DNA of 32,000 nucleotides, from assembly GCF_000023965.1 (NCBI RefSeq), contig NC_013202.1, forward strand, positions 270,001 to 302,000, read 5' to 3'. Shown here in pieces: positions 4,462 through 19,949 of the stretch; positions within the stretch are counted from its first letter, which is position 1; each line of letters begins with the position of its first letter. Below the pieces are notes generated by a model. That model worked only from the letters and a program-made list of their open reading frames with translations. It did not search any database and had not been told where the DNA came from. The position numbers were made by a program, and so were the translations under genes. Source of the stretch: Halomicrobium mukohataei DSM 12286 (lineage in GTDB: Archaea > Halobacteriota > Halobacteria > Halobacteriales > Haloarculaceae).

Positions 4462-5451
4462 CTACCGCTGGGCCTGCCAGTCGGCGACGAGTTCGTCGAC
4501 GGCGCGGTTGATGTCTGCGATCTGTTCGGTCTGGTCGTCGGCTTCCCCGGCGATGGCGGCGGTCGACTCGGCGATCTCCTCTGCGGCGGCCGTCGCCTGA
4601 TCGACCATGCTCGCGACTTCCTCAGTAGAGGCGGCCTGCTGGTCGGTCGCGCTCGCGACCTCCGCGATCCCGTCGTTGACCTCCCGGACCGCGTCGCCGA
4701 TCTCGTCCAAGATCTCGACGGACTCCTCGACGGACTCGATACCCTCGTCGATCTCGGCGTTGGAGGTCTCGAGGCTGTCGACTGCGTTTTCGGTGTTGCC
4801 CTGGATGCGACCGACCATCTGCTCGATCTCGCTGGCCTCGGACTGGGCCTGTTCGGCGAGCGACTTGACTTCGTCGGCGACGACCGCGAAGCCTTCGCCG
4901 GCTTCACCGGCACGCGCGGCCTCGATGGAGGCGTTGAGCGCCAGCATGTTCGTCTGGTCGGCGATGTCGTTGATCACCTCGACGATCTCGTCGATCTCAG
5001 CGACGCTTCGCTGGATCGTTCGGACGTCTTCGGTCACGCTGTCGGCGGCCCCCTGAATCCGCTCCATCGCGCCGTACACGTCCTGTGCGTTCTCCTGGCC
5101 CCGATCGGCCAGCGCCGTCGCCTCCTCGGTCGCCGTCGAGACCTGTTCTGAGGAAGACGCGATCTCCTCGACGGCCGCGCTGAGGTTCGACACCTCTTCG
5201 GCGATCTGGCTCATCCCCTCGTGCTGTTCGGCGGCCCGGCCGCGGATGTCGTCGACCTCTTGGGCGATATCCTCGGACGACGCCTGCAGTTCGGCGATCG
5301 AGGTCTGGATCTCGCTGGCGGCGTCGTTGTCGTAGCCCGCCTGCCGATCCACCCGCTGCTCGATCTGATCGTCGATGTCCGTGTCGAGGTCCTCGTCGAG
5401 ATCACTGGCTGTCGAGAGGTCCGGCTCCGCCCGGGGCTCGGTGTCTGACAT
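4462..5451 (-). CDS. soluble methyl-accepting chemotaxis transducer (signalling domain only)
   Basis: Highly conserved MCP tip [38 protein letters not shown]. No TM helix or HAMP domain. ATG at 5451 is preferred over the GTG at 5475 because a TATA-like box sits about 29 nt upstream, which implies a leaderless transcript. Confidence 0.85.
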
Positions 5452-5475
5452 TGGTAACCGTTTATCCAAATCCAC

Positions 5476-5483
5476 TTAAAAAT
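5476..5483 (-). promoter_or_regulatory. TATA-box-like element for the MCP gene
   Basis: ATTTTTAA on the minus strand, centred about 29 nt upstream of ATG 5451. The spacing fits haloarchaeal leaderless promoters. Confidence 0.4.
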
Positions 5484-5589
5484 GGTGTGCCCAACAGAAT
5501 CAAAAGCGATACTGAAGGGAGCAGATGTCGGCCACACCGCCGAAACGAGCGTCTTACCGGTGGCCGTTGCGGTCAGTGTTATAGTAGCC

Positions 5590-5653
5590 ATTGAAAGTCA
5601 ATGCACACCCGATCGCACGACAGCAGTGCGATCGGTGTGTGAATCGTTTCAAT
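5590..5653 (-). terminator. long hairpin abutting the carboxypeptidase stop codon
   Basis: Core stem CACACCCGATCGCAC / GTGCGATCGGTGTG (5604-5618 / 5626-5639, one bulge, 7-nt loop). Outer pairing ATTGAAA (5590-5596) / TTTCAAT (5647-5653). The stop TCA at 5649-5651 (TGA on the minus strand) lies in the outer stem. Confidence 0.35.
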
Positions 5654-7178
5654 TGTTACTATAGCAGTCGTACAGGTCACGGTACTTCGACTCGGCGTAT
5701 TCGAGGAAGTAGTCGGCGGTGAAGGGCTCGCCGGTCGCTTCCTCGATGAGGTCGTCGGTCTCGTAGCGTGCGCCGTGGCTGTGGACGTTGTCCGTGAGCC
5801 ACTCGTGGAGGTCGTCGAACTCGCCGTCGCGGAGCTGTCCGTCCAGATCGCCGATGTCGTCTTCGGCGGCGGCGAACAGTTGTGCGGCGAGCACCGACCC
5901 CAGGGAGTACGTCGGGAAGTAGCCGAAGGAGCCGTGGCTCCAGTGGATGTCCTGTAGGCACCCCTCGGCGTCGGTCTCGGGCCGGACTCCGAGGTACTCC
6001 TCCATCTTGTCGTTCCAGACCTGCGGTACCTCGCTCACGTCGAGGTCGCCGTGGATCAGGTCCCGCTCGATCTCGAAGCGCAGGACGATGTGCATGTGGT
6101 AGGTCAGTTCGTCGGCCTCGACGCGGATGCAGTTGTCCGGGTGGACCGTGTTGGCCGCCTCGTAGTACTCTCGGGGCGTGGCCGACGTGGCGAGGTGGTC
6201 CTCGACAGTCGGGGCAAAGCCCTCCCAGAACGGCCGGGAACGCCCGACGTGGTTCTCCCAGAGTCGGGACTGGGACTCGTGGACCGAGAGGTCTCGAGAC
6301 TCGCCCAGCGGCGTCCCGTAGTGTTCGTCGGGGAGCCCGAGCGTGTACGTCGCGTGGCCGAACTCGTGGATGGTCGAACTGAGCGCACCCAGCGGATCCT
6401 CGGGATCGAACCGCGTGGTCACGCGGGCGTCGAACTGCGTCCCGGTCGAGAAGGGATGTGGCGCAGTGTCGAGTCGCCCGCGGTCCCAGTCGTAGCCCAG
6501 GTAGTCAAGCGCCGACCGAACGAGGTCCTCCTGTGACGCCTCGTCGTAGCTGCCACCGGCGAAGGGGTCGGCCAGCGTCACGTCGCTGTCTTTGATGTCG
6601 TCGATCAGCGGGACGAGCGTGTCGCGGAGGTCTTCGAGTGCCGCTTCGGCGGTGTCGAGCCCGAGGTACGGTTCGTACTCCTCGAACAGGACCGCGTAGG
6701 GGTCTCGGTCGGGATCGATCGCCTCGGCGTACTCGCGCTTGAGCTGGACCAGCTCTTCGAGCGTGTCGGCGTAGATCTCGAAGTCGTCCTCGGCCTTGGC
6801 TTCCTTCCAGACCGGCAGCGCGTTCGAGGTGGCCTCCGAGATGCGCTGGACGAGGTCGCTGGGCACCTTCGCGGCGCGGTCGTGCTGGCGGCGAATCTCG
6901 CGGACGACCGCTTCCCGCTCGGGATCGAGGTCCGATCCCTCCAGTTCGTCCAGCCACTCGGCCACGTCGTCGTCGGTCAGGAGGTCGTGCGAGAGCGTCG
7001 ACAGCGCCGCCGACTGCTTCGAGCGGGCGGGTGTCCCCTCGTCGGGCATCATCACTTCCTGATCCCACTGGAGGACACCGGCGGCGTCGCCGACGTAGGT
7101 CAGCTGCTCGACGTGAGCGCGGAACTGCTCGTAGGTGTCGGGCGTCTCTGCGTCGTCAGCGTCGGCTTCCGTTGCCAT
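5649..7178 (-). CDS. M32 family carboxypeptidase (carboxypeptidase Taq-like)
   Basis: 509 aa. HEFGHATY zinc motif, HESQSRLWEN and IRVEADELTY blocks diagnostic of peptidase family M32. Confidence 0.9.
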   Translation of the reverse strand: MATEADADDAETPDTYEQFRAHVEQLTYVGDAAGVLQWDQEVMMPDEGTPARSKQSAALSTLSHDLLTDDDVAEWLDELEGSDLDPEREAVVREIRRQHDRAAKVPSDLVQRISEATSNALPVWKEAKAEDDFEIYADTLEELVQLKREYAEAIDPDRDPYAVLFEEYEPYLGLDTAEAALEDLRDTLVPLIDDIKDSDVTLADPFAGGSYDEASQEDLVRSALDYLGYDWDRGRLDTAPHPFSTGTQFDARVTTRFDPEDPLGALSSTIHEFGHATYTLGLPDEHYGTPLGESRDLSVHESQSRLWENHVGRSRPFWEGFAPTVEDHLATSATPREYYEAANTVHPDNCIRVEADELTYHMHIVLRFEIERDLIHGDLDVSEVPQVWNDKMEEYLGVRPETDAEGCLQDIHWSHGSFGYFPTYSLGSVLAAQLFAAAEDDIGDLDGQLRDGEFDDLHEWLTDNVHSHGARYETDDLIEEATGEPFTADYFLEYAESKYRDLYDCYSNN

Positions 7179-7256
7179 GCAACTGTGTTACAACGGCCGT
7201 CGTATAATCCCCGCGACGAGGGAAAGATTCACAGCCTCTCTGGTCGGGCCGTCGGT

Positions 7257-7643
7257 ATGGAACGCGAGACCGTCGATAGCGGCACTGAGTGGGAAGCCGA
7301 AGTGGGCTACTCTCGCGCCGTTCGCGTCGGCGACCGAATCGAGGTGTCGGGGACGACCGCCACCGACGAGGCGGGCGGGGTCGTCGGCGTCGGCGATCCG
7401 TACGCACAGGCAGCGAAGGCGATCGAGAACATCGAGACGGCGCTGGAGACCGCCGGAGCGGGGCTCGAAGACGTGGTCAGGACGCGCATGTTCGTCACGG
7501 AGATCGAGAACTACGAGGCCGTCGGTCGTGCCCACCGCGAGGCGTTCGGCGACGTGCGGCCGGCGACGAGCATGTACGAGATCGAGCGCCTCGTCGATCC
7601 GGACCTGCTCGTCGAGGTCGAAGCGGTCGCGATCAGCGAGTGA
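7257..7643 (+). CDS. RidA/YjgF/UK114 family protein
   Basis: 128 aa from the internal ATG 7257 of track ORF 6882..7643. The sequence before that ATG is a shadow of the carboxypeptidase gene. Typical size and blocks (GDRIEVSGTTA, RTRMFVTEIENYEAVGRAHREAFG, C-terminal LVEVEAVA). Confidence 0.8.
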   Translation: MERETVDSGTEWEAEVGYSRAVRVGDRIEVSGTTATDEAGGVVGVGDPYAQAAKAIENIETALETAGAGLEDVVRTRMFVTEIENYEAVGRAHREAFGDVRPATSMYEIERLVDPDLLVEVEAVAISE

Positions 7644-7738
7644 ACGCGCCGGCCACGTGACGACGACCCGAGCGAAGCGAGCCCCCTCGACGGCGGTGTC
7701 GGTCCCCCAGTTTCACGACCGATAACGAGGGAGGGAGT
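7606..7738 (+). repeat. left direct repeat (att-like) of the AT-rich insertion
   Basis: 7606-7728 equals 9966-10088 except for two substitutions (7625 g/9985 c, 7651 g/10011 a). Degenerate similarity continues about 10 nt further. It contains the last 12 codons and TGA of the RidA gene plus about 85-95 nt of non-coding DNA. Confidence 0.9.
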
Positions 7739-8046
7739 CGTGGGAAATATCGATTCTGTGTATGGTTTTTGAGTGATGCCTGCTGATACATTTGATGACG
7801 CCAGCAGGATCAATGAGATCTGCTGAGCAAGTTCATTGGGGCGAATTACCGCTTGGCTGTCTACAGTTCTATCCCAGCCGTAAGTCTACTGAGGAACGTT
7901 CGAAAGCAGAAGCGAAATACCGCGCAGAACGGATTGATATCTGCCCATTTGAGCCCCATCGTCTTCCAACATCTATTTCTAGTAGATTAAAATATTTCCA
8001 ACTATTCGATACATGTATATGTGTCCACTATTTATGATCATTTGTA

Positions 8047-9162
8047 ATGGCAGATAGTAATAGTGTGAATGAGGTTGACATAGATAAGCGTGAACTATTA
8101 AAGGCCATTGGATCAGTGGGTGCAACCGGTGGATTCCTATCATCCACCGCATCAGCAGGACAAATCGAAGAAGAAGAGGTTGATCTGGATGAGTTTGCAA
8201 CAAAACCAATATATGAGTTAGCTATTGACGTGATTGAGCATCCTAAACACTCAATGCTGGCTTTCACCACGTCAGTGATTGATGAAAGCCTTGGACTTTA
8301 CATCGCCACGGGTGTGTCTAAGCCAAAGAATTCCTATCTCCCTCGAGAGGGTACCCCACCAGGTCGGCGTGCCACGGAGGTAATCAAAGTAGCGGAAGCC
8401 AAGACTGGCGCTATAATGCAACTCGAATGGCACAGCAAGACCGAAATTAGCTACTGGGAAGCTGGTGAGATAATTGCCACTGATGTTTCAGATATAACCA
8501 ATAAATTAGATACCGGAAATAATGGGCGGCGGTCACACAGGAACAATTCCAAAGGCCCATCGGTGGAAATCCAGTCCCAGCCTTCGGATCGAAAAAAGAG
8601 AGTTGTGAGTAAGCAGACTGCTCCAGACTCTCTCCAAGGTATTATCGAAACACAATCCGAAACACCATCTACTGAAATAACTACGCAACAGTTTGATCCA
8701 TCCCGCTGTAACATTCCAAAGCTACCACAGGTCGGTATTGAAGAGTGTCAGGATGCTGGTGCATTCGGTGAGTTTTGTGCAAAAACTACCTCAATAGGCT
8801 GCATGAGAAAGCAATGCTCATGGGGCAAGACACCACCGCTACTTTCAGTCCCTGTGACGATTGCTGAAGGAAATGTTGGTGATGGAAAGGTTTATATTGA
8901 CATGTGGGCTGGATTGGAGATCACAGATTCAGGAAAATATTGCGTTTGGCTAGGCAGTGAAGCTGCTGGCGTTTGCGTGACGGATTGCTACCGAGACCGT
9001 CCTGATACGGCTGAAGCAACTAAGCTTGCAGAAGATTTCGTTCCTGAAATAGATCTTTTTGGGGCCGCCAAATTTGTCGGTGAAGTGATTGTCACTCTGA
9101 TAGCACTAATTATACTTGCTATCGTTGCAGCGGCGGCAGGGATAACCGGTGTAGGTGCATAG
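8047..9162 (+). CDS. secreted, C-terminally anchored Cys-rich protein with a Tat-like (KR) signal, function unknown
   Basis: 371 aa. N-terminus DIDKRELLKAIGSVGATGGFLSSTASA|GQ resembles a twin-arginine signal with KR and an AxA cleavage site. A polar linker follows. All 8 Cys lie in residues 221-314 (nt 8707-8988). C-terminal hydrophobic helix VIVTLIALIILAIVAAAAGITGVGA. It is the only long ORF on either strand in this region. Confidence 0.7.
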   Translation: MADSNSVNEVDIDKRELLKAIGSVGATGGFLSSTASAGQIEEEEVDLDEFATKPIYELAIDVIEHPKHSMLAFTTSVIDESLGLYIATGVSKPKNSYLPREGTPPGRRATEVIKVAEAKTGAIMQLEWHSKTEISYWEAGEIIATDVSDITNKLDTGNNGRRSHRNNSKGPSVEIQSQPSDRKKRVVSKQTAPDSLQGIIETQSETPSTEITTQQFDPSRCNIPKLPQVGIEECQDAGAFGEFCAKTTSIGCMRKQCSWGKTPPLLSVPVTIAEGNVGDGKVYIDMWAGLEITDSGKYCVWLGSEAAGVCVTDCYRDRPDTAEATKLAEDFVPEIDLFGAAKFVGEVIVTLIALIILAIVAAAAGITGVGA

Positions 9163-9221
9163 AGAACAAAGACAATATTATTGATCGCAGATCAAACAAC
9201 CATATATCACATTCCAGAATA

Positions 9222-9584
9222 ATGAGAAAGCTCCTGCTGCTCGCTTTTGCGCATATTGTAATTATAGCAACGATTTGGTTCCCGGAAAATTTTCTAAGTG
9301 ATGTATTTCAAACTTGGCTGGTGATCGTGGGCTTCACTATTTGCCCAGTTTTAATTTCGGCTATTCTGTGGAATCTGGGTCGAACTGAATGGAAATTCGC
9401 CCGTTCAAAAATTCACCCCCCCATCGTTTTACTTGTACTTACTGCTATGATTAATGGAGTTTCTCTTCTAATTACCGTGTCTCGGATAATTGAATTGGTG
9501 ATTCTTCTCGCTATTCTTCTTTCACTTCTTGCTGAAGCACGAGGTCTTTTTTATGCTTATAAGCAACTGTCGAGGAGGGGTTGA
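9222..9584 (+). CDS. small polytopic membrane protein (about 4 TM helices), function unknown
   Basis: 120 aa with four hydrophobic segments (LLLLAFAHIVIIATIWF, WLVIVGFTICPVLISAILW, PPIVLLVLTAMINGVSLLITV, LVILLAILLSLLA). Same strand as the Cys-rich protein gene and 59 nt downstream of it. AT-rich codon usage. Confidence 0.6.
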   Translation: MRKLLLLAFAHIVIIATIWFPENFLSDVFQTWLVIVGFTICPVLISAILWNLGRTEWKFARSKIHPPIVLLVLTAMINGVSLLITVSRIIELVILLAILLSLLAEARGLFYAYKQLSRRG

Positions 9585-9775
9585 TTACGATTAGGGACAT
9601 TCGACTTCCACTCAGCATGGTCCTGGCCCTCGCCTTCGTCATGCTCGCCCCAGTCGTTCTCACCGCCACAGTCTACGGGATTGCGCTGGCTGCTCTGGGG
9701 GAACCACTCCTCGCCGGAGCTGTCGCACTCGTCTGTCGTGCCATGCTCCTCATACTGCCGGCTGTACCTTCGTGA
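9581..9775 (+). CDS. possible small membrane protein whose 3' end runs into a MITE-like element
   Basis: 64 codons. TTG start overlaps the TGA of the preceding ORF (alternative ATG at 9617). Two hydrophobic helices. GC content is host-like. The stop TGA at 9773-9775 lies inside repeat copy 2. Confidence 0.3.
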   Translation: MITIRDIRLPLSMVLALAFVMLAPVVLTATVYGIALAALGEPLLAGAVALVCRAMLLILPAVPS

Positions 9776-9830
9776 AGATCTTCGCCACCCCGGGGTGGCG
9801 AAATCGCTCACAGATTTACAGCCGGTAGTA
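9753..9830 (-). mobile_element. MITE-like palindromic element, family 1 (78 bp), copy 2 (inverted)
   Basis: Its reverse complement differs from copy 3 at only 2 of 78 positions. Flanked by direct TCA (9750-9752) and TCA (9831-9833). Confidence 0.7.
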
Positions 9831-9965
9831 TCAGTACGGAACTCCTGTTCGGCGAGCACTTCTTCGAACGAATTTCGGACGACTCAGACCGAAGAAGAGA
9901 CGACGAACAGCTGGCACAGGTCATCCAGCACTTCTCTCAGCAACGGGGTATCGCTCCGCCGACGT

Positions 9966-10098
9966 TGCTCGTCGAGGTCGAAGCCGTCGCGATCAGCGAG
10001 TGAACGCGCCAGCCACGTGACGACGACCCGAGCGAAGCGAGCCCCCTCGACGGCGGTGTCGGTCCCCCAGTTTCACGACCGATAACGAAGGGGGCAGT
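9966..10098 (+). repeat. right direct repeat (att-like) of the AT-rich insertion
   Basis: Duplicate of 7606-7738 (see the left repeat). It carries an orphan copy of the RidA C-terminal codons and TGA (10001-10003). Confidence 0.9.
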
Positions 10099-10129
10099 AC
10101 TATAACTGTTCATCTGATTGGTACTAGGC

Positions 10130-11911
10130 ATGGCACCGCGTCACACAGGCACCTCGCAACTGCTCCACGTCGGCGAGCGCGAGACGTTGCTTCGGGAGGC
10201 GAGCGGCGCAGTCGACGCCGGAGGAGGCGACGTGGCGGTGACGACCGTCGACAGTATCGAGGCGGCCGACGAGCGGATCGACCGCGGGAACGTCGACTGC
10301 GTCGTCTACGAACACGGTGCCAGCGGAGAGGAACCGGAGTCGCTCCGGAAACTGGCCGATCGAGCGAGCGCGACTCCCTGGCTGTTCCTGACGAGCGACG
10401 AGACGGCCGTCGACGACGCCTTGCGGGCCGGTGCGAGCGACGTGGTCGTCCTGCGTGAAAACACCGACCGACGGCTGCTGTCTCGGCGACTGGAACATAT
10501 CCTCGCCAGACAGCGCCTCGGCGAGAGCGAAACTGGAGCAACGTCGACGATGACCGAAGCGCTGCGATCAGACCGAGCCGCGACGGATCTGCTGCTCGAT
10601 ACGCTCGACGACGTGTTCTACCTCGTCGGCACCGACGGGACGCTCGAACGGTGGAACGAGAGTCTCAAGACCGTCACCGGCTACTCGGACGCGGAGCTGG
10701 CGGAGATGAACGCGATCGCTCTCTTCGAGGAGTCGGACCGAAGGCGGGTCGACGAGGCCGTCGCCGAGACGCTCGAAACCGGATCGTCGAGCGTCGAGGC
10801 GTCGTTCGTGACCACGGACGGAGAGACGATCCCCTACGAGTTCACCGGTGCGAGACTCGCCGACGACGGCGACGTGCGCGGGCTCGTCGGAATCGGACGC
10901 GACATCTCGGAGCGCAAGGCCCTCGAAGCGGAACTCCGACGGAAAGCGAGCCTGCTGGACCACATCTTCAACCAGGTGCCGACCGCGCTGTACGTCAAGG
11001 ACACCGAGGCCCGTCACGTCCGGATGAGCGAGTTCCACTCCGACGCCGAGGGAACCCTTGGGAAGACGGACCCGGAGATCTACGGAGAGACGGAGTACAC
11101 CGAGTCGACGTACGCCGACGACATGCGGGTCATCGAGGAGGGCGATCGGATCATCAACCAGGAGGAGTTCAATCCCAGAACCGGCGAGTGGTCGCTCACG
11201 TCGAAGGTCCCCTGGCGAACGGAGGACGGCGAGATCCAGGGGCTGATCGGCGTCACCCGCCTCATCACGGAGAAAAAGGAGTACGAACAGAAGCTGAACC
11301 TCCGGAACCGGGCGATAGCGGAGGCACCGATCGGAATCACGATCCACGACGCGATGGAACCACCGGGCCGAATCGTCTACGCGAACGACAGCTTCCAGTC
11401 GCTGACGGGCTACGACGAGCCGGCGCTCGACGGGGAGGACCTCACGATACTGGCCGGTGCGGAGACGGAGCCCGGCCAGCTCGATCGACTCGACACCGCG
11501 TTCCACGACAGCGAGTCGAGGTCGCTCGTCGCACTCCTCTACCGGCGGGACGGAACGCCGTTCTGGGGCCGGATCACCGTCGCTCCAGTGACCGACGACG
11601 ACGAGGTGACGCACTTCGTCGGGTTCCTCCAGGACGTGACGGAGACCAAAGAGCGGGCAGAAGAGATCGAGCGACGACTCGACGAGTTCGGCGAACTCAT
11701 CGCAGAGGAGCTACGGACACCGTTAGAGCGTGCCGAGCAGTCCGTCGCGGCGATCGCCGACCCCAGTCAGCAGGCTGCCGTCGAGAACGCAGTCGAGTCG
11801 ATTCGGCGGGCCGACAAGCTCGTCGACGACCTGGCGGCGGTCCACTCGTTCTCGGTCAAGTCACGCGACGTGTTCGAGACGGCGTCGACGAGCCAGAGCG
11901 AGGACCGATGA
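10130..11911 (+). CDS. receiver-like / triple PAS (third is LOV-like) / degenerate HisKA signalling protein without an ATPase domain
   Basis: 593 aa from ATG 10130 (the track starts at TTG 10118). N-terminal CheY-like region. PAS blocks around LLDTLDDVFYLVGTDGTLERWNESL and LLDHIFNQVPTALYVKD. A LOV-like block IVYANDSFQSLTGYDE...RRDGTPFWGRITVAPV...FVGFLQDVTETKE. The C-terminus has FGELIAEELRTPLERAE where an H-box would be. No HATPase_c follows. Confidence 0.75.
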   Translation: MAPRHTGTSQLLHVGERETLLREASGAVDAGGGDVAVTTVDSIEAADERIDRGNVDCVVYEHGASGEEPESLRKLADRASATPWLFLTSDETAVDDALRAGASDVVVLRENTDRRLLSRRLEHILARQRLGESETGATSTMTEALRSDRAATDLLLDTLDDVFYLVGTDGTLERWNESLKTVTGYSDAELAEMNAIALFEESDRRRVDEAVAETLETGSSSVEASFVTTDGETIPYEFTGARLADDGDVRGLVGIGRDISERKALEAELRRKASLLDHIFNQVPTALYVKDTEARHVRMSEFHSDAEGTLGKTDPEIYGETEYTESTYADDMRVIEEGDRIINQEEFNPRTGEWSLTSKVPWRTEDGEIQGLIGVTRLITEKKEYEQKLNLRNRAIAEAPIGITIHDAMEPPGRIVYANDSFQSLTGYDEPALDGEDLTILAGAETEPGQLDRLDTAFHDSESRSLVALLYRRDGTPFWGRITVAPVTDDDEVTHFVGFLQDVTETKERAEEIERRLDEFGELIAEELRTPLERAEQSVAAIADPSQQAAVENAVESIRRADKLVDDLAAVHSFSVKSRDVFETASTSQSEDR

Positions 11912-11960
11912 GACGGTGCGCTCGCCCGAAGACAGCCAGTGACACCTGAGAGAACCACCG

Positions 11961-12722
11961 ATGAACTTCCCGGCAGACAGCGTCGTCGTCTTCGAGGAAA
12001 ACAGGACGCGCGGAGAGCTGTACTCGCTGTGGCTCGACGAGTACGACGTGGACGTGGCCGCGACCAAACAGGAGGCCGATGCGGAACTGGACGGGGCCGT
12101 CGTCGTCGCCGTGCTGAACCAGGGGTTCGCGGACGGTGCCGCCTCGAAGCTGCTGGAGATCGTCCGGTCGCGCGCACCGCTCTGTCGCGTCGTCGCGACA
12201 CGGGAGCGGTCGGATCCGTTCCCCGACCTCAACGTGGACCACCAGCTCGTCAAGCCGGTGTTCGAAGAAGAGCTGGTCGATCTCGTCGAGACGCTGCTCT
12301 GCCGGGCGAACTACCACCTCGCACTGAGCCGGTACTACCAGACGAACGTCGATCTCTCCTCGTTCGAGGTCCACGACGGCGACCACCCGCCCGACAGAAC
12401 GGAGTACGACGAACTCCAGCAGCGGGCCTCCAAGCTACAGAAGTTCATCGCCAGCCTGACCAAGGAGATGGAACAGGAGGACATCCGCGCAGTCAAGCGC
12501 GACATCCTCCTGGAGCGCGACATCGAGGAGACACACAGCACGGAGAAAATCGACAGCAAGTACCGGCCCAGGAAGTGTACGAACTGCGGTCAGCGGTGGG
12601 ACGGCAACGCCGACGGAGAGCCCGGCGTCACACAGCTCGGTGCATACGTCTGGCGGTGTGGGGGCTGTGGCCACGTCCAGATGGCGGCAGATCCCAGCCA
12701 CCAGCACGTCAACCGCTGGTAG
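11961..12722 (+). CDS. receiver-like / HalX-like coiled-coil / C-terminal zinc-ribbon protein
   Basis: 253 aa. CheY-like topology (SVVVFEEN, VVVAVLNQG, RVVATRE, HQLVKPVFEEEL). A coiled-coil segment follows as in HalX-domain regulators. CTNCG...CGGCGH gives a CxxC-x24-CxxC ribbon (nt 12576-12668). It lies 50 nt downstream of the PAS gene. Confidence 0.65.
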   Translation: MNFPADSVVVFEENRTRGELYSLWLDEYDVDVAATKQEADAELDGAVVVAVLNQGFADGAASKLLEIVRSRAPLCRVVATRERSDPFPDLNVDHQLVKPVFEEELVDLVETLLCRANYHLALSRYYQTNVDLSSFEVHDGDHPPDRTEYDELQQRASKLQKFIASLTKEMEQEDIRAVKRDILLERDIEETHSTEKIDSKYRPRKCTNCGQRWDGNADGEPGVTQLGAYVWRCGGCGHVQMAADPSHQHVNRW

Positions 12723-12753
12723 CCGGCGACACGCGAGAGACGAACGAGAGCCG

Positions 12754-13875
12754 TTACCGCGCGACCTCACTCGCTACGTCGCGGTAGATCGCCACACAGC
12801 GCTCTAGCACGTCGATCGAGACGGACTCGTCTGCGGTGTGGGCCTCGCCGGGCTGGGCCGGCCCGACGACGACGCAGTCGGTCCCAGCGCCCGCGAGGTT
12901 ACCGGCGTCGGTCGCGTGGGGCTTGACGACGTGTTCGGGCGCGCCGTCCTGTGTGGCGGTGGCCGCGTCCAGCACGAGATCGGCGAAAGCCTCGTCCTCG
13001 CAGGCCATCGGCGGGAGGTCCTGATCGACGGTCCACTCGACGCCGTCGATCGCCTCGACGCGTTCGATTGACGCGCGCTCGCCGGGCACCGTCCGTTCGT
13101 CGACGGTCACCGCACACGATTCGGGGATGACGTTCCACGCGCTCCCGCCGTCGATCTCCGTGACTGCGACGCTCCCGCGGACCTCGTGGCCCATGACCGT
13201 CGTCGACGGGAACGAGAGGTCCCGCACCACGTCGACCGCGTCGCTGGCCCGATAGATGGCGTTCTCGCCGCTCTCGACCTCGCTGGCGTGGGCGGCCGTT
13301 CCCGTGGCTTCGATCGTACTGCCACGGCGGCCCTTGTGGGCGACGGCAACGTCCGTGACGCCCTCGGCGGAGTAGCCCGTCGAGCCCTCGCCGACGACGG
13401 CGTAGTCGGGCGCGAACCCGTCGTCGATCGCGGCCGTCGAGCCCAGACAGCCAGATTCTTCGGCGACGAACGAGACGAAGACGAGTTCGCAGTCGAGGTC
13501 GGTCGCGTCCCGGAAGGACAGCATCGCGGCGGCGACCGCTCCCTTCATGTCGGCGGCCCCGCGACCGTAGAGGCGGCCATCGCGTTGCTCGACGCGGTAG
13601 GCACCGTCGTCGTCGACCTGCGACTCGTCCGGCGGCACCACGTCGTGATGGCCCGCCAGCGCGAGCGACGCCCCGCCCGCGCCGTCGCGGGCCACCGAGT
13701 CACCCGCGGAATCGACGCCCGGACCCTTGCGCGCGAAGACGTTGCCGTGCTCGTCCCGGAAGACGGCGCTATCGGTGTGCTCTCGGAGCCACTCCTCGAT
13801 GTAGTCGCCCGCGGCGGCCTCGTCCTCGTGGCTCGGGATCGAGACCAGCTCGCGGGTCAGGTCGGCGACGTGCAT
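12754..13875 (-). CDS. M20 family metallopeptidase (ArgE/DapE/acetylornithine deacetylase-like)
   Basis: 373 aa from ATG 13875 (the track GTG is at 13899). Motifs GHHDVVPP and YGRGAADMKGAVAA are typical of M20 dimetallopeptidases. Confidence 0.8.
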   Translation of the reverse strand: MHVADLTRELVSIPSHEDEAAAGDYIEEWLREHTDSAVFRDEHGNVFARKGPGVDSAGDSVARDGAGGASLALAGHHDVVPPDESQVDDDGAYRVEQRDGRLYGRGAADMKGAVAAAMLSFRDATDLDCELVFVSFVAEESGCLGSTAAIDDGFAPDYAVVGEGSTGYSAEGVTDVAVAHKGRRGSTIEATGTAAHASEVESGENAIYRASDAVDVVRDLSFPSTTVMGHEVRGSVAVTEIDGGSAWNVIPESCAVTVDERTVPGERASIERVEAIDGVEWTVDQDLPPMACEDEAFADLVLDAATATQDGAPEHVVKPHATDAGNLAGAGTDCVVVGPAQPGEAHTADESVSIDVLERCVAIYRDVASEVAR

Positions 13876-13967
13876 ACCCGTACAGAGAGTGCCAGCCACA
13901 AAAGGCTACACCGCCCCGCCTGGGGACTCCACAAGAGCCATTGTGTGCGTGGTCGAACAGGTGGCCA

Positions 13968-14972
13968 ATGACGACCTCGTCGAGCGAGGCGACGGACTCG
14001 GATTTCAGTTCGGTGCCGTCGCTGCGTCGCTGGCTCAAGACGTTCGTGATCGGTCTGTGTATGGGCTCTGCCGACGCGACGCCGGGCATCTCCGGTGGCA
14101 CTGTCGCACTGATTATGGGCATCTACGAGCGTCTGATCGCCGCGATTACGGCGATCACCCCGGAGCGAGCGAGGCGGTTTCTCCGCGCGCTCACACCGGT
14201 CGACGGCGGCGTCTCGCTTCGCCGGGCCGTCGCCGTCCTCGAAGAGGTCGACGTGTGGTTCCTGCTGGCGCTGGTCGGCGGCGTGGGCACCGCCGTCGTG
14301 ATCGTCGCCCGGATCGTCCACGTCGCCAGCGAGGAGACGCCAGTCCTGCTGTACGGCGCGCTGTTCGGCCTGATCGGCGCGTCCGCGGTGATCCTGCTGC
14401 GAGCGCTCAGCATCGAGACCGCGACCCACGCGGTCGCCGCCGCGTCGGGGTTCGTCCTCGCGTTCGTCCTGTCCGGTCCCGCCTCTCCGCTGGGGACCGA
14501 GGGACTGCTGGTCGTCTTTCTGGGCGGTGCCGTCTCGGTGAGCGCGATGATCCTGCCCGGCATCTCCGGCTCGCTCTTGCTGGTCGTGCTCGGGCAGTAC
14601 GAGCGGTTGTCCGGCGCGTTGACGACGTTCGTCGACGGCCTGCTGGCCGTCCTCACCGGGCGACCGGCGGCGGGACTGGTCGACGCCGGGACGGTCGTCG
14701 TCACGTTCATCCTCGGCGGGCTGGTGGGCCTGTTCACGATCTCGCGACTGATCCGGCGGGCACTGGACAGGAACCGGGGTGCGACGCTGGCCTTCCTCGT
14801 CGCGCTGGTCGTGGGCGCGTTGCGAGCGCCGATCACCGAGCTGTCGACCCGAGAGGCAGTCACCTGGACGACGGAGACGATCGCCGTCTTCGCCGCCGTC
14901 GCAGCCGCCGGCGCAGTGGTCGTCCTCGTGCTGGACTGGTACGCCGTCGATCTCGACTTCGAGGCGGTCTGA
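13968..14972 (+). CDS. DUF368 family integral membrane protein
   Basis: 334 aa from ATG 13968 (the track TTG is at 13941). Duplicated signature PGISGGTVALIMGIYERL and ILPGISGSLLLVVLGQYE, with multiple TM helices. Confidence 0.8.
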   Translation: MTTSSSEATDSDFSSVPSLRRWLKTFVIGLCMGSADATPGISGGTVALIMGIYERLIAAITAITPERARRFLRALTPVDGGVSLRRAVAVLEEVDVWFLLALVGGVGTAVVIVARIVHVASEETPVLLYGALFGLIGASAVILLRALSIETATHAVAAASGFVLAFVLSGPASPLGTEGLLVVFLGGAVSVSAMILPGISGSLLLVVLGQYERLSGALTTFVDGLLAVLTGRPAAGLVDAGTVVVTFILGGLVGLFTISRLIRRALDRNRGATLAFLVALVVGALRAPITELSTREAVTWTTETIAVFAAVAAAGAVVVLVLDWYAVDLDFEAV

Positions 14973-15105
14973 GCGCCCGACAACCCCACATCACCAACCT
15001 GAATTCGGTATTATAGAACGATCCCACAGAGAGATCACCACTTACCACGAAGATCTTCCGATTATGAGAACAATAATTAAGAGTGTGGGAGAGAATGAGA
15101 CGTTC

Positions 15106-15240
15106 ATGGCGGATCGTTTCAGCTACCGGGAGATTCGCGCGATAGAACGCGAGTACTGCCGCCAGAACGACAACATCGTCGGTTTCTTCGGCGGTGCCGA
15201 CGAGAGGAGCCCCGAGCGATCCTCGAACGGGGACGACTAG
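15106..15240 (+). CDS. possible small protein (44 aa, or 58 aa from ATG 15064)
   Basis: MADRFSYREIRAIEREYCRQNDNIVGFFGGADERSPERSSNGDD. It sits in a locally AT-rich intergenic stretch with a TATA-like TATTATAG at 15009-15016. No recognisable family. Confidence 0.25.
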   Translation: MADRFSYREIRAIEREYCRQNDNIVGFFGGADERSPERSSNGDD

Positions 15241-15292
15241 GCCCTCGTACGAGCCGTCGATGTGTACCGAGACATCGCCACGGCCGCCCGTA

Positions 15293-16555
15293 TCAGGCCG
15301 CCCCTCGCCGAGTGCCCACCCGTGACAGCGCCACGGCCAGTGCCGCGCCGAGTACCGGGAAGGCCGCCAGCGCGAGGAAGGTGCCGTCGGTGCCGACCGC
15401 CGACAGCAGGATGCCGGACAGCGCCGCGCCGGCCGCGCCGACGCCGAAGTTCGCCAGGTAGGTGAACCCATACGAGAGTCCGCGGTCGTCTGGCGGGCTG
15501 TACTCCGCGATGGTCGCCTGATAGAGCGGCTGGATGGCGAAGAGCACGAAGCCAAGCACCGCGCTGACAGCGAGCAGCGGACCCAGACCGGCCTGGGCGG
15601 CCGGCACGAACAACACCGCGACGACGGCGAGCGCAGCGAACACCCCGATCAGCCCCGTCGTCACCGAGATCCGGTCGGTGAGCTTGCCGCCAGCGTACTG
15701 GCCGGCGATGCCGACCGTCAGCAGGCCGGCGTAGACGTAGGAGGCGAGATCGAACTCCTCGGCCATCGGACTGCCGGGATCGAAGAGGCGGACGTAGTCG
15801 GTGATCGGCGGGAGAAAGCCACCGAGCACGTCCGGCAGGAAGGTGAGGACGCCGCGGTAGAACACGCCGTTCATCAGCACGACGCAGATCGCCAGCGCGA
15901 AGCCCGCCGTAAAGAGCGTCCGCGTGCCGGTGACGAACTCGCCGAGCGAGGACGGTCCGCCGCCACGGCCCTCGTCCGCGCCGCCGTCAGCGCGGACGGC
16001 GGCCATCTCGTCGAACTCGGCGGTGACTGCGTACGCGACCGCCAGCGCGGCGGGGATCGAGAGCAGGCCCGCGACGGTTCGCCAGTCGAAGGCCAGCAAG
16101 AGCAGCGCGGTCGCCAGCGGTCCGAACGCGATGCCGACGTTGCCGGCCATCCCGTGGTAAGCGAAGCCGGTGCCGCGCTCTGACACGCCCGTCGAGAGCA
16201 AGGAGAGGCCGGCCGGGTGGTAGACGCTGGCGGCGACGCCCCACAGCCCCAGCGCGAGGGCGATCGTCGGGATGCCCGGTGCGAACCCGAGCAAGAGGAA
16301 CGAGCCGCCCATCCCGAGCAGACAGCCGATCACGACGGTCCGAGCGCTCAGGAGGTCGGCGAGCACGCCCCCCGGAAGTGCGCCGATGCCAAAGAGGGCG
16401 TAGCCGACGGCGACGATCGTCCCGAGCAGCGCTGTCGTCGTCGAGAACTGCTGGAGCCAGACGACGACGAAGATGGGGATCGACAGCTCGTAGGTGTGGA
16501 CCGTCGCGTGGGCCAGCATCGCGAAGCCGACGATCGAGCGGTCGTTGTCGTTCAT
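15293..16555 (-). CDS. MFS transporter
   Basis: 420 aa from ATG 16555 (the track TTG is at 16576). About 12 hydrophobic helices in a 6+6 arrangement with a central acidic loop. A GGVLADLLSARTV motif-A-like loop follows TM2. Confidence 0.8.
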   Translation of the reverse strand: MNDNDRSIVGFAMLAHATVHTYELSIPIFVVVWLQQFSTTTALLGTIVAVGYALFGIGALPGGVLADLLSARTVVIGCLLGMGGSFLLLGFAPGIPTIALALGLWGVAASVYHPAGLSLLSTGVSERGTGFAYHGMAGNVGIAFGPLATALLLLAFDWRTVAGLLSIPAALAVAYAVTAEFDEMAAVRADGGADEGRGGGPSSLGEFVTGTRTLFTAGFALAICVVLMNGVFYRGVLTFLPDVLGGFLPPITDYVRLFDPGSPMAEEFDLASYVYAGLLTVGIAGQYAGGKLTDRISVTTGLIGVFAALAVVAVLFVPAAQAGLGPLLAVSAVLGFVLFAIQPLYQATIAEYSPPDDRGLSYGFTYLANFGVGAAGAALSGILLSAVGTDGTFLALAAFPVLGAALAVALSRVGTRRGAA

Positions 16556-16752
16556 CGACAGCGCGCGACCCCCCAACCGTGCTCGTATCGCCGCTGTGTT
16601 CGGGCAGACCGTTCGACTGTCTCGACGCGCGCCGAGGCGACCGGTCCGAGGCCGGTCGCCGGGCCAGCGCTGTCGGTCTCAATCATGCTGTACACCCAGA
16701 GATAGAGCATGAAAAACGTTGTTAGACCGGCCCCGGACGAGCGGCGGTTTCA

Positions 16753-16830
16753 TACTACCGGCTGTAAATCTGTGAACGATTTCGCCACCCCGGGGTGGCG
16801 AAGATCTTCACGAAGTTACAGCCGGCAGTA
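16753..16830 (+). mobile_element. MITE-like palindromic element, family 1 (78 bp), copy 3
   Basis: TACTACCGGCTGTAA...TTCGCCACCCCGGGGTGGCGAA...TTACAGCCGGCAGTA. Flanked by direct TCA (16750-16752) and TCA (16831-16833). The latter is the stop codon (TGA) of the gamma-glutamyltransferase gene. Confidence 0.7.
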
Positions 16831-18426
16831 TCAGAACCCGACGCTACTCCCGTCCTTGCGTGGTTCGGTCGCGCCAGACAGCGTCCCGTCGGGCTCGCGG
16901 CGCGCGATCTGGCCGCCACCGAACTGTCGGGGCGGGAGGACGGCCACGTCGTGTTCCCGTCGGGCGAGGTCGGCACCGATCTCGCCGGCCAGCCGTTCCT
17001 CCAGCGCGAGGCGGCCGTCCTCCATGTAGCGCCAGCGCGGCGCGTCGAAGGCCCGCTGGAGGGGCATCTCGTCGTCGATGAGGTTGCTGAGGACCTGGAC
17101 GTGGCCCTGCGGTTGCATGTATCCGCCCATGACGCCGAAGGCCGCCCAGTCCTCGTCGTCGAGTTCGACGAGGCCGGGGATCAGCGTGTGGAACGGCTTC
17201 TTGCCCGGTTCGAGCGTGTTGGGGTGGTCCGGATCGAGCGAGAACGACGCGCCGCGGTTCTGGAGGACGATCCCCGTGTCGGGGACGACGACGCCGCTGC
17301 CGAAGCCGTTGTACAGCGAGTTGATGAACGAGACGACGTTGCCCGCCTCGTCGGCGACGGTCAGCAAGACCGTGTCGCTGTCCTCGTCGGGGAGACCCGG
17401 CCCGCCGACGCTGACCTCGCCAGCGGTCTCGTCGACCGTCGCCGCCCGCTCGCTCGCGTACGCTGGATCGTGAAGATCCGGAACGGACTCGAAGTCGGGG
17501 TCGGTGATGTAGTGGTGGCCGTCGTGGAAGGCCCGCTTCATCGCCTCGGCGAAGTAGTGGACGCGCTCGGGCGAGCCCGCGGGGTGGTCGCCAGCGCCCA
17601 GCTCCGCGGCGACGTTGAGCGCCTCCAGCGCGATCAGGCCCTGGTTGTTCGGCGGCAGCTCGTAGACGGTCGCGCCGCCGTAGGTCGTCGAGACGGGATC
17701 GACCACGTCGGGGGTAAAGCCCGCGAGGTCGTCGGCCGAGAGGAGACCGCCCTCGGCCTGGACGGCCTGGCCGATCCGCTCGGCGATCGCCCCCTCGTAG
17801 AAGGCGTCGGCTCCCTCGCGGGCGACGGTCTCGAACGTCTCGCCCAGCCCCGGCAGCGTGACGGTCTGGCCCACGTCCGGTGCCTCGCCGCCGGGCAGGT
17901 ACGCCTCGCGGCCGGCGTCGCTGACGAACCGCTGGGCACAGGCGGCCCACGCGTCGGCGATGATCTCGCTGACCGGGTACCCCTCGGTCGCGTACTCGAT
18001 GGCCGGCTGGAGCACGTCGCCGAGCGCGAGCCGACCGTGCGCTTCGACGGTGTGCTCCCAGCCCCGCGCCGCGCCCGGAACCGTGATCGCCAGCGGGCCG
18101 AAGTCTGGCATCTCGCCGTCGTCGACGCGGTCCCGGACGGCCTCGCGTGTCGCGCGCTGGGGTGCGCCGCCACAGCTCCGGAGCGCGCCCACCTCGCCGT
18201 CGGCCGTGCGATACAGCGCGAACGCGTCCCCGCCGATACCGGTGCTCATGGGCTCGACGACGTTCAGCGCCGCCGCCGTGGCGACGGCCGCGTCGAAGGC
18301 GTTACCGCCCTCGCGGAGGAGTCTGACGCCGGCCTGTGCGGCCAGTGGCTGGCTCGTCGAGACGACGCCGCGGTTCGCGTAGACGGTAGAACGGCGCGAG
18401 TCGAACCGATCGAGGTCTGGATCCAT
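16831..18426 (-). CDS. ggt: gamma-glutamyltransferase
   Basis: 531 aa from ATG 18426 (the track TTG is at 18453). Blocks GGNAFDAAVA, PMSTGIGGDAF, DSDTVLLTVADEAGNVVSFINSLY and FGVMGGYMQPQGHVQVL match the GGT family. Confidence 0.88.
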   Translation of the reverse strand: MDPDLDRFDSRRSTVYANRGVVSTSQPLAAQAGVRLLREGGNAFDAAVATAAALNVVEPMSTGIGGDAFALYRTADGEVGALRSCGGAPQRATREAVRDRVDDGEMPDFGPLAITVPGAARGWEHTVEAHGRLALGDVLQPAIEYATEGYPVSEIIADAWAACAQRFVSDAGREAYLPGGEAPDVGQTVTLPGLGETFETVAREGADAFYEGAIAERIGQAVQAEGGLLSADDLAGFTPDVVDPVSTTYGGATVYELPPNNQGLIALEALNVAAELGAGDHPAGSPERVHYFAEAMKRAFHDGHHYITDPDFESVPDLHDPAYASERAATVDETAGEVSVGGPGLPDEDSDTVLLTVADEAGNVVSFINSLYNGFGSGVVVPDTGIVLQNRGASFSLDPDHPNTLEPGKKPFHTLIPGLVELDDEDWAAFGVMGGYMQPQGHVQVLSNLIDDEMPLQRAFDAPRWRYMEDGRLALEERLAGEIGADLARREHDVAVLPPRQFGGGQIARREPDGTLSGATEPRKDGSSVGF

Positions 18427-18501
18427 ACTGCTGGCAAACGGAGACAGGGGCAAAAGCGTTGGTCCGGGACAGTAGAGTGTCGACTTCCAGAATCAGTGGC
18501 A

Positions 18502-19266
18502 TCAGGACGGGACGGTCGCCCGGAACTGCTCGGGATCCTCGTGGAAACAATCGCCGACGATGATCGCGTCCGCACCAGCATCGAGGATCTCACGGGCGCG
18601 ACGACGACTATTGATCCCGCCACCGTAGACGAGTGTCGCGTCATCGAGGTGGGATGCCGCCGCTTCGACCTCTTCGGGACCGCCATAGGTACCCGAATAT
18701 TCCAGATAGAAGATCGGGAAGCCGTAGAACGCTTCCGTTGCGAGAGCCGCACCGGCGACCTGCTCGGTCGTGTACGCCGTCTCGACCCCCGAAACTGTCG
18801 CAGCCTTCGATTCGATGTTCTGGATGACGTATCCTTCGCCGACGATCTTGTCTGCCATCCGGGCAACCGCGTCCAACCCTTTCGACGCGATGAGATCGCC
18901 GAGCACTGGCAAGCCGGTGCCAAACAGTTCTTCGGGTTTGTTGCCGACTTCGGTGAAGAGATCGAGATGCTTACCCACGAAGTGCTCGCGGTCCCCGTTG
19001 TAAACGGCTGGAATCGCCAGAAGGTCCACGGCGTCGATAGTATCAGTCGAGACGTGATCCGAGCTGTACGGTTCCTGAAGGATGGGGATCGACGGGACCG
19101 CCTCACCGATCTGCTCAATCACTGCGAGCGTGTTCTCGGCCGTGACGCCGTCGGAACCACCGACGATGATCGCGTCTGTCTCCGACAGCACGCCGATGTC
19201 GCGTGGGAGATCCTTCGCGGGATCGATCTTCGTCACGTGGGTGATATCGTCCCAGTCGAGGTTCAT
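18502..19266 (-). CDS. geranylgeranylglyceryl phosphate synthase (PcrB/GGGPS family)
   Basis: 254 aa. ITHVTKIDP, IIVGGSDGVT and LVYGGGINS...AGADAIIVGD are typical of the GGGPS TIM-barrel family. Confidence 0.85.
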   Translation of the reverse strand: MNLDWDDITHVTKIDPAKDLPRDIGVLSETDAIIVGGSDGVTAENTLAVIEQIGEAVPSIPILQEPYSSDHVSTDTIDAVDLLAIPAVYNGDREHFVGKHLDLFTEVGNKPEELFGTGLPVLGDLIASKGLDAVARMADKIVGEGYVIQNIESKAATVSGVETAYTTEQVAGAALATEAFYGFPIFYLEYSGTYGGPEEVEAAASHLDDATLVYGGGINSRRRAREILDAGADAIIVGDCFHEDPEQFRATVPS

Positions 19267-19410
19267 AATTGCCGTGCGAAAGCGACGAAGATAATCCTTG
19301 CTCTCTCTCGAATTCGAGCGAGTGCCCCACAGTTATTTTCATACACCCGCCGGTCGGGTCGTATCGGCAACAGCGTCCGAGTGCAAAGGCACCGCACAAC
19401 ACCGGAGCGG

Positions 19411-19785
19411 TTATTCCGAGAACGAACTGGAGCCGACCGGCGGCGTCTCGTGCTGGAACGTCTGGACCTCCACGGTCCGCCCGTCCGGGTCGGTCGCGAA
19501 GAACTGGTAGATCCCGAAGTCGTCGTTCGGTTTCGGCGGGCCGCGGGCCACGTCGGCGAGGTCGGCGTGACAGTCGTCGACGGCCGCCTCGTCGTCGAGG
19601 ACGACCGTGACGATCCCGTCGGTCTCCGTCTCGGTCCCGTCGCAGAAGCCGACGAGGAGGTTGTCGTACGCGAGAATCGTACAGCCGCCGTCCTGTTCGA
19701 GCCACACGTCGAAGCCGAGTCGATCGGTGTAGAAGGAGACGGTCTCGGCGCGGTTCTCGGTCCGGAAGAAGACGATCCCAGACAT
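19411..19785 (-). CDS. VOC (glyoxalase/bleomycin-resistance/dioxygenase) family protein
   Basis: 124 aa. FYTDRLGF... and the overall size and pattern fit a single paired beta-alpha-beta-beta-beta module. Confidence 0.65.
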   Translation of the reverse strand: MSGIVFFRTENRAETVSFYTDRLGFDVWLEQDGGCTILAYDNLLVGFCDGTETETDGIVTVVLDDEAAVDDCHADLADVARGPPKPNDDFGIYQFFATDPDGRTVEVQTFQHETPPVGSSSFSE

Positions 19786-19870
19786 ACCGCCACCGAGACG
19801 CGCCAGCCACGTGAGCGTGCCGGCTGGCGTCGGCGGCGCTGGACGGGGCCGCGACGACAGCGTGCCCTCA

Positions 19871-19949
19871 TACGGAAAATTGTAGTTGCTTACCGGTGAG
19901 CGTCGCCACGGGGTAGACGCTCACCGGTACATTCCTACAACCGTCCGTA
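19871..19949 (+). mobile_element. MITE-like palindromic element, family 2 (79 bp), copy A
   Basis: TACGGAAAATTGTAG...TTACCGGTGAGCGTC-GCCACGGGGTA-GACGCTCACCGGTA...CTACAACCGTCCGTA. Perfect 14-bp inner stem. Flanked by direct TCA (19868-19870) and TCA (19950-19952). The latter is the stop codon of cbiO. Confidence 0.65.

Follow-up and report, generated by a model that had tools for sequence, protein, structure and literature searches.

The window, a 32,000-nt stretch of the Halomicrobium mukohataei DSM 12286 genome (NC_013202.1, positions 270,001 to 302,000), contains an AT-rich insertion between the ridA gene and a PAS/HisKA sensor gene (PAS below), bracketed by direct repeats. The left neighbour of ridA is an M32 carboxypeptidase gene (M32 below). 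The Ribonuc_L-PSP domain matched RidA over its full length, which places the protein in the RidA/YjgF family. Between the repeats lie, from left to right, a non-coding leader, two genes that we call orf371 and orf120, and the 5' remnant of an M48/M56 metallopeptidase gene which carries a miniature inverted-repeat transposable element (MITE)-like palindrome. J1 is the junction between the ridA 3' flank and the left end of this cassette, and J2 is the junction between the M48 remnant and the right repeat (Table 1).

The direct repeat was found at 7606-7728 and 9966-10088, 123 nt with exactly two mismatches (7625 g/c and 7651 g/a), as had been described in a first-pass annotation made by a model from the sequence alone. 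It comprised the last 12 codons of ridA (LLVEVEAVAISE), the TGA stop codon and about 85-95 nt of 3' flanking non-coding DNA, the same content that was read there. The weaker similarity reported for about 10 nt past the repeat was also present: ungapped extension gave 133 nt at 96% identity (7606-7738 and 9966-10098), and an 8-nt match at J1, described below, explains it. No tRNA gene was detected in the window. Over 17 kb the window showed no mismatch to two independent assemblies (CP045142.1 and RZNE01000001.1), and H. katesii DSM 19301 contained the duplication with the same junctions at 97.8% identity. Therefore the duplication is real and not an assembly artefact, a doubt which the annotation itself had raised.

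The GC content of 7733-9600 was 0.444, against 0.676 +/- 0.019 in equal-sized windows elsewhere (z = -11.9), and its tetranucleotide distance was 0.076 with a background maximum of 0.025. The GC content at third codon positions (GC3) was 0.34-0.38 in the interior open reading frames (ORFs) and 0.84-0.88 in the flanking genes. The AT-richness first seen by hand counts in the left ~1.85 kb of the insert is thus a property of 7733-9600, an outlier in both measures, but not of the right ~350 nt (9617-9965), which are a GC-rich truncated M48 gene with the MITE-like element.

Table 1. Features of the ridA-PAS locus in the window (positions in nt of the window)
Feature	Position	Strand	Evidence or remark
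M32 carboxypeptidase gene, native left neighbour	5649-7178	-	PF02074, E = 4.5e-163; collinear with the IBSBa empty site
M32-ridA spacer, native, uninterrupted, 78 nt, with both promoters	7179-7256	.	Length as in IBSBa, sequence nearly identical
ridA (RidA/YjgF), intact, native	7257-7643	+	PF01042, E = 9e-29, residues 12-126; collinear with IBSBa as far as 7731
Left copy of the duplicated block, with ~88 nt of 3' flank	7606-7731	+	Equals IBSBa (reverse) 9940-10064
Junction J1, ridA 3' flank / cassette left end	7726-7740	.	G/A-rich microhomology GGAG.AGT
AT-rich non-coding leader, 315 nt	7732-8046	+	Aligns to KBTZ05 L004 9709-10000 with several indels
orf371, orphan cargo protein	8047-9162	+	Twin-arginine translocation (Tat)-like signal, Cys-rich domain, C-terminal transmembrane (TM) anchor, all predicted
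orf120, small polytopic membrane protein (predicted), second cassette gene	9222-9584	+	3-4 hydrophobic segments
M48/M56 metallopeptidase 5' remnant, ~93 codons, pseudogene	9617-9965	+	blastn match to KBTZ05 M48, L004 11571-11850
MITE-like palindrome, 79 nt	9752-9830	.	TC target duplication at 9750-9751 / 9831-9832
Junction J2, M48 codon ~93 / ridA codon 117	9965-9977	+	In-frame fusion, 11/12-nt microhomology
Right copy of the duplicated block, into the native PAS promoter region	9966-10098	+	9966-15236 collinear with IBSBa
PAS/HisKA sensor gene, native right neighbour	10130-11911	+	PAS_4, E = 6e-34, and others; 91-95% amino acid identity to orthologs

Relatives were collected by a scan of genome contigs with the PAS protein, in which H. 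katesii was the sole relevant relative, and outgroups were found through M32 homologs and gene context. Three allelic states were observed across four close genomes. The window and H. katesii have the order M32, ridA, orf371-orf120-truncated M48, ridA 3' fragment and PAS. Halomicrobium sp. IBSBa has M32, 78 nt, ridA, 125 nt and PAS, with no island on either side of ridA. Its sister Halomicrobium sp. KBTZ05, ~97% identical to it in the nucleotide sequence of the flanks, has M32, orf371-orf120-M48-orf176, ridA and PAS; here the island abuts the M32 start codon and has no flanking repeats, and the ridA-PAS junction is unoccupied.

Compared with the empty site of IBSBa, which carries the repeated sequence once, the window has a 2,234-nt insertion and a 125-nt duplication, which makes 7732-9965 a genuine insertion. 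The order of ridA, spacer and PAS, which had been deduced for the time before the insertion, is the order present in IBSBa. The window was collinear with IBSBa in 5663-7731 and in 9966-15236, and the 78-nt spacer was nearly identical; therefore the left ridA copy is native, as is the region upstream of it, and both stand at their original position. A movement or copying of ridA to a position upstream of the island was also considered and rejected, since, by comparison with the empty site, both the left ridA and the spacer before it are native and unmoved. In an uncultured, more distant relative M32 adjoins ridA, and the island-free order is therefore ancestral. The deviant composition, the patchy occurrence among the four close genomes and the orphan cargo are those of a horizontally acquired islet.

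The way in which KBTZ05 acquired its island was visible in the comparison of L004 9200-13272 with IBSBa (L020). Homology between the two genomes is lost at the M32 start codon and regained 21 nt inside ridA; the spacer between M32 and ridA was replaced together with the initial 21 nt of ridA, so that the RidA N-terminus is MERQHISSG instead of MERETVDSG. In addition, the 5' 450 nt of M32 were 86% identical between the two genomes while the rest of the gene was 97% identical. Judged from these breakpoints, the KBTZ05 island was apparently imported by a double crossover from a third, more divergent lineage which already had the island between M32 and ridA. A double-crossover footprint of this kind means that the islet would move here by homologous recombination in the flanking genes, with no element-encoded function needed. 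The KBTZ05 spacers were also compared, as possible diverged forms, with the native M32-ridA spacer and with the ridA tail; they matched no better than shuffled sequences, and a remnant of a first ridA copy was not supported.

The right repeat begins at J2, its left, inner edge (9966). The intact M48 gene of KBTZ05 encodes 317 amino acids (PF01435) and lies 1.4 kb upstream of an intact ridA. Its first ~280 nt align with window positions 9617-9751 and 9833-9977, and in the window the reading frame of the M48 remnant runs into the ridA tail LLVEVEAVAISE and its stop codon. The parental sequences are CCGACGTTGGTCGTCGAGG/CAGGGG in KBTZ05 M48 and CCGGACCTGCTCGTCGAGG/TCGAAGC in native ridA, and the window has CCGACGTTGCTCGTCGAGGTCGAAGCC. 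The two parents share the microhomology TG.TCGTCGAGG in 11 of 12 nt, which in both is read as L-(V/L)-V-E, with the frame unchanged; the probability of such a match by chance at a fixed register was 2e-6 to 3e-5. Since an intact M48 gene, orf176 and a full ridA are not derivable from the fusion of truncated M48 to truncated ridA, the fusion is the derived state. The comparison with both parents indicates that the right repeat starts simply where an illegitimate joint happened to fall.

At J1 (~7731), the empty site reads ...GAGGGGAGCAGT/ACTAT, KBTZ05 before the cassette reads ...CAGGAGCAGT/CGTGGAG and the window reads ...GAGGGAGGGAGT/CGTGGGA. KBTZ05 and the empty site share the microhomology GGAGCAGT in 8 of 8 nt, exactly at the breakpoint. 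Matches are thus present at both breakpoints, with a probability by chance of ~1e-5 to 1e-4 each, and both parent types exist among the relatives, IBSBa as the island-free and KBTZ05 as the island-bearing type; with only 86% identity, the KBTZ05 island is a relative of the actual donor.

The MITE-like element in the M48 remnant is missing from the KBTZ05 M48 gene. Its insertion adds 81 nt in frame and a TGA stop codon. The element has 15-nt termini (ATACTNCCGGCTGTA) and the centre GCCACCCCGGGGTGGC. Three copies were found in the window (9752-9830, ~469-552 and ~16752-16831), with 2-nt duplications (TC, TC and TG), and DNA matches occur on haloarchaeal plasmids, at 13 places on NZ_CP044130.1 of Halomicrobium sp. 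LC1Hm and also in Haloarcula and Natribaculum. The element thus shows the terminal inverted repeats, short target duplication, multiple non-coding copies and presence/absence polymorphism of a MITE. No partner transposase was identified for it. One of the other copies touches a second variable position: KBTZ05 (L004 20260-20885) and IBSBa (L020 286-911) have a PIN-domain gene and a gene for a 77-amino acid partner, a toxin-antitoxin-like pair, between a major facilitator superfamily transporter gene and a gamma-glutamyltranspeptidase gene, whereas the window lacks the pair at ~16577-16830 and has a full MITE copy instead.

The cargo consists of two genes. The orf371 protein fell in only two clusters among 5.8e9 proteins, both from Halomicrobium; 27 distant relatives, which cover two domains, came out of an exhaustive profile search. 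The best relative was a hypothetical protein of Halalkalicoccus tibetensis (29% identity, E = 5e-42). The N-terminus is Tat-like (DKRELLKAIG), with an RR motif in a homolog (PRRSVLRSLG); the C-terminal domain contains eight Cys residues, and one C-terminal TM helix was predicted at residues 335-371. We predict a Tat-type, C-terminally anchored, Cys-rich surface protein. AlphaFold2 with a 2-sequence alignment gave no confident fold (mean predicted local distance difference test score, pLDDT, 31.8). The ratio of nonsynonymous to synonymous substitution rates (omega) against KBTZ05 was 0.17 for orf371, indicating purifying selection, and 0.48 for orf120, whose protein was 76% identical to the KBTZ05 copy; the orf371-orf120 copy of KBTZ05 was 86% identical to that of the window. 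In the leader, the 81-amino acid ORF at 7792-8037 was not conserved and had no Pfam match, and Rfam gave no match in 7000-10400 at E <= 1.

Small membrane ORFs also adjoin the orf371 homologs in two other contexts, L024 (5600-7400, Halalkalicoccus tibetensis) and L025 (7001-8335), and in one metagenomic contig an orf371 relative lies directly upstream of an M48/M56 peptidase gene whose product is 28% identical to that of KBTZ05. From this gene order, the pairing of orf371 with M48 is probably functional; the protease half was lost in the lineage of the window. A FilR1/HVO_A0261-type regulator gene was found divergently upstream of orf371 relatives in two contexts. The cassette of the Halalkalicoccus homolog has no flanking repeats, other homologs occur in unrelated contexts, and proteins of 860 and 181 amino acids with the Cys-rich domain are encoded near a transposase on a Haladaptatus megaplasmid. 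In every high-GC context examined the orf371-like gene was AT-rich, with a GC3 of 0.34-0.45 against 0.8-0.9 in its neighbours, and the AT-rich troughs of the family were located at L024 5600-7400, L025 7001-8335, L027 1555-4758 and L028 3751-6891. The family is uncharacterised, and its persistent AT-richness would mark membership of a fast-turnover pool of cell-surface genes. PHROGs gave no match for orf371 or orf120, scans of viral and metagenome contigs for orf371 relatives gave no match, and tblastn against phage genomes was negative. A provirus remnant was considered as the origin of the insert and dropped, as no viral relatives of the cargo were found.

The two repeat copies have not evolved independently. 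In an alignment of six copies (left and right of the window, left and right of H. katesii, IBSBa and KBTZ05), two katesii-specific substitutions (GAGCGgAGCG and GTCGaTCC, substituted base in lower case) occur in both katesii copies, and one window-specific substitution (GAGgTC) occurs in both copies of the window. This pattern indicates concerted evolution, in which gene conversion keeps the two copies alike; for haloarchaea, which are polyploid, gene conversion of high efficiency has been documented (PMC8223754, PMC11276520). With gene conversion acting on the copies, the 98% identity of the repeats therefore gives no date for the event.

Through the comparison of the window with H. katesii, in which the counterpart of 7733-9616 is L008 7604-9487, we found 7 differences in 1884 nt (0.37%) in the AT-rich part of the island (7733-9616), 4 in 349 (1.1%) in the M48 remnant with the MITE (9617-9965), 4 in 126 (3.2%) in the left repeat, 7 in 133 (5.3%) in the right repeat, and 101 in 4200 (2.4%) in the flanks. 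The divergence of the AT-rich part is thus ~6-fold lower than that of the flanks (P = 5e-7 even after GC scaling) and changes at the repeats; that of the M48 remnant is not significantly low (P = 0.08). Synonymous divergence (dS) between the two genomes was 0.008 in orf371 against 0.055-0.078 in ridA and PAS. Against KBTZ05 the dS of the island (0.45) exceeded that of the flanks (0.14-0.24), a comparison that is not decisive because the KBTZ05 copy comes from a third lineage. The islet could have been exchanged between the mukohataei-type and katesii lineages after their split, with a tract ending at the repeats. A rate that depends on composition could also produce the low divergence, since divergence in the GC-rich part of the island is not significantly reduced.

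Other irregular positions were observed in the window. The divergence and indel hot spots against H. katesii were 5400-5800, 10400-10600, 15000-15400 and 15800-16000, with 41-97 differences per 200 nt over a background of 2-8; most are intergenic or N-terminal, and that at 10400-10600 falls within the N-terminal, receiver-like portion of PAS. Milder GC dips (0.56-0.61) were found at 18400-19400, 14800-15400 and 5400-5800, and the dip at 18.4-19.4 kb covers a PcrB-family gene (18502-19266; geranylgeranylglyceryl phosphate, GGGP, synthase-like) and an unannotated 202-amino acid ORF (19263-19871).

Considering these observations together, we think it probable, though well short of certain, that 7732-9965 comes from an islet which already existed in a chromosome, and that host recombination, not a site-specific integrase, placed this fragment. 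The source islet would have been an AT-rich two-gene cassette for a surface and a membrane protein, followed by an M48 peptidase gene. A fragment of it would have entered the ridA-PAS spacer of an island-free Halomicrobium chromosome through two illegitimate joints: at J1 the end of the ridA 3' flank would have been linked, at ~8 nt of microhomology, to the cassette's left end, and at J2 M48 codon ~93 would have been joined to ridA codon 117 at the 11/12-nt microhomology. The chromosomal breakpoints overlap by 125 nt, and therefore the block stands on both sides, and ridA and the PAS promoter region stay intact. The 79-nt MITE would have entered the M48 remnant later, and gene conversion would have homogenised the repeat copies since. 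The event is of an ordinary, known kind, though well documented here.

Four routes would lead to this same product, which does not tell them apart. The first is a double template switch between island-free and island-bearing chromosome copies in a polyploid or hybrid cell during replication or repair, resembling microhomology-mediated break-induced replication (MMBIR) or fork stalling and template switching (FoSTeS). In the second, a fragment would be captured through microhomology-mediated end joining (MMEJ) between two chromosome copies. The third would proceed by homology-facilitated illegitimate recombination (HFIR) to a transient ridA-island-ridA allele, in which MMEJ would then delete the DNA from M48 to the second ridA. 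In the fourth, a circle with the fused block would integrate by homologous recombination.

Several observations weigh against placement by illegitimate joints without an integrase. Taken as a free local alignment, the 8-nt match at J1 lacks significance (its score was reached by 110 of 500 shuffles), so that its significance is positional only, and the J1 of the window itself differs from the 8-mer at 2-3 bases. J1 also coincides with the left compositional edge of the cassette, which a discrete element end would explain too. Intermediate alleles, either with a double ridA or island-bearing with the M48-ridA fusion, were not found among the relatives compared, and the integrase search covered only the window with its flanks. 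Finally, the low divergence of the AT-rich part, ending at the repeats, fits repeat-mediated mobility better than a one-off scar.

The last point bears on the rival that survives best, unlikely as we hold it to be, in which the islet spreads as an integrase-free circle. The circle would consist of the cassette, the M48 remnant and one 125-nt block; it would enter ridA-PAS alleles by RadA-dependent pop-in and be excised between the copies, so that the repeats would be functional recombination substrates that spread the islet among strains, and J1 and J2 would have been made once, illegitimately, when the circle arose out of an island-bearing chromosome. Campbell integration of such a circle would give exactly the present structure, gene conversion shows that the repeats recombine, the island lies on different sides of ridA by lineage with a close relative empty, and an exchanged tract of low divergence ending at the repeats (0.37%, against 2.4% in the flanks and 3-5% in the repeats) is exactly what this route predicts. 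However, no circle or excised allele was observed, only two independent carriers of the allele were found, the island of KBTZ05 apparently entered by double-crossover replacement and not through the 125-nt block, and the M48 remnant (4/349, P = 0.08) leaves the low divergence possibly a composition effect. If the circle were true, haloarchaea would have in the orf371 family a surface-protein module that is persistently AT-rich, is rapidly exchanged and moves without a recombinase of its own.

An origin entirely in cis seems improbable. An ancestor of the KBTZ05 type would have duplicated the island and ridA in tandem by unequal exchange at the GGAGCAGT 8-mers, and two deletions would then have removed the first island copy and, in the second copy, the stretch from the 3' part of M48 to the 5' part of ridA. 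In KBTZ05, GGAGCAGT precedes the cassette and also stands where the ridA 3' flank ends, the geometry for such an exchange, and J2 would be a plain deletion joint in this case too. But three events are required, and a deletion must recreate the native spacer exactly: the spacer of the window is the native 78 nt, near-identical to the empty site, and those of KBTZ05 have no detectable homology to it.

The first-pass annotation had read the repeats as attL and attR, the attachment (att) sites of an element targeting the ridA 3' end, either decayed or mobilised in trans. It had also stated that no integrase, transposase or replication gene lies between the repeats, which agrees with our searches: interior ORFs had no match to such families in Pfam, NCBIfam and PHROGs, and no integrase or transposase was present among the called genes from ~17 kb upstream to ~24 kb downstream. 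Pleolipovirus-type proviruses with integrases are reported elsewhere in the H. mukohataei genome, with one at 912,487-926,019 in DSM 12286 (PMC3384331). We did not find the latter adjoining the locus in the 10 kb upstream (CP045142.1 919.5-929.3 kb, L029), where only housekeeping genes and a PIN/VapB pair occur; it lies either further upstream, or at shifted coordinates, or is absent in the CP045142.1 strain. The duplicated gene 3' end with the gene kept intact, the foreign composition of the cargo and the single-copy empty site of IBSBa speak for site-specific integration, although an empty site is also expected for any other insertion type. With no integrase adjacent, no viral relatives of the cargo, an inner 'attR' edge that is an in-frame fusion at microhomology to an M48 gene intact in KBTZ05, a microhomology joint also at J1, homologous islands at different sites without repeats (only the sister species H. 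katesii shares the site) and a 125-nt block whose homogenisation by gene conversion needs no integrase, we regard this origin as very improbable. Of a decayed remnant or a cassette mobilised in trans there survives a weaker form, mobilisation by host homologous recombination, without the integrase part.

Placement by host recombination can be compared with known systems. In Haloferax volcanii, MMEJ joints have microhomologies of 3-19 bp (PMC5435918), and both J1 (8 nt) and J2 (11/12 nt) fall within the range of haloarchaeal MMEJ and illegitimate joints (PMC5435918, PMC12281630, PMC2700283). As in those joints, no recombinase gene or inverted repeats are involved, and here one joint fuses two unrelated genes. 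Unlike the documented cases, which are deletions after induced breaks, the window has an insertion with a 125-nt flanking duplication, and therefore two joints and two chromosome copies, or a template switch, are needed.

HFIR is known from bacteria that are naturally transformable and from conjugation of E. coli (PMC3240628). There, too, foreign DNA comes to lie beside a homologous anchor while a microhomology joins its other end, and the present product could arise through a double-ridA intermediate; in HFIR, however, recipient DNA is usually deleted, not duplicated, and no intermediate was found here. We know of no demonstration of HFIR in archaea. Template switching by FoSTeS/MMBIR is known from eukaryotic and bacterial structural variants, and a templated insertion inside a duplication with microhomology at both breakpoints is like the present structure. 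Here it could be inferred from the product only, and a second chromosome copy of the same cell, one with the island, would have been the donor.

Campbell-type pop-in/pop-out integration is used in haloarchaeal genetics (PMC12281630, PMC7776575). There, too, the insert stands between direct duplications of the homologous target, and the repeats studied here demonstrably recombine; the differences are that this would be a natural event with only ~125 nt of homology and that no circular form was observed. Resting on three allelic states in four genomes, base-resolved breakpoints, a by-product gene fusion and gene-converted repeats, the locus may serve as a clean natural case of a polyploid, recombination-prone haloarchaeon placing and reshuffling a small foreign cassette without an integrase.

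In outline, the window also resembles att-flanked elements and the integrase-less cis-mobilisable elements (CIMEs) of streptococcal integrative and conjugative elements (ICEs). Repeats that duplicate the target 3' end, an intact gene, an empty site, AT-rich cargo and the lack of an internal integrase are common to them and the window. They differ in that the repeat edge here is a fusion joint in a truncated M48 gene, that in a sister species the same island lies at another site without repeats, and that no cognate integrase for the repeats was found in the window and the flanks searched. Long direct repeats which duplicate a gene 3' end around AT-rich DNA mimic attL/attR but can be recombination scars.

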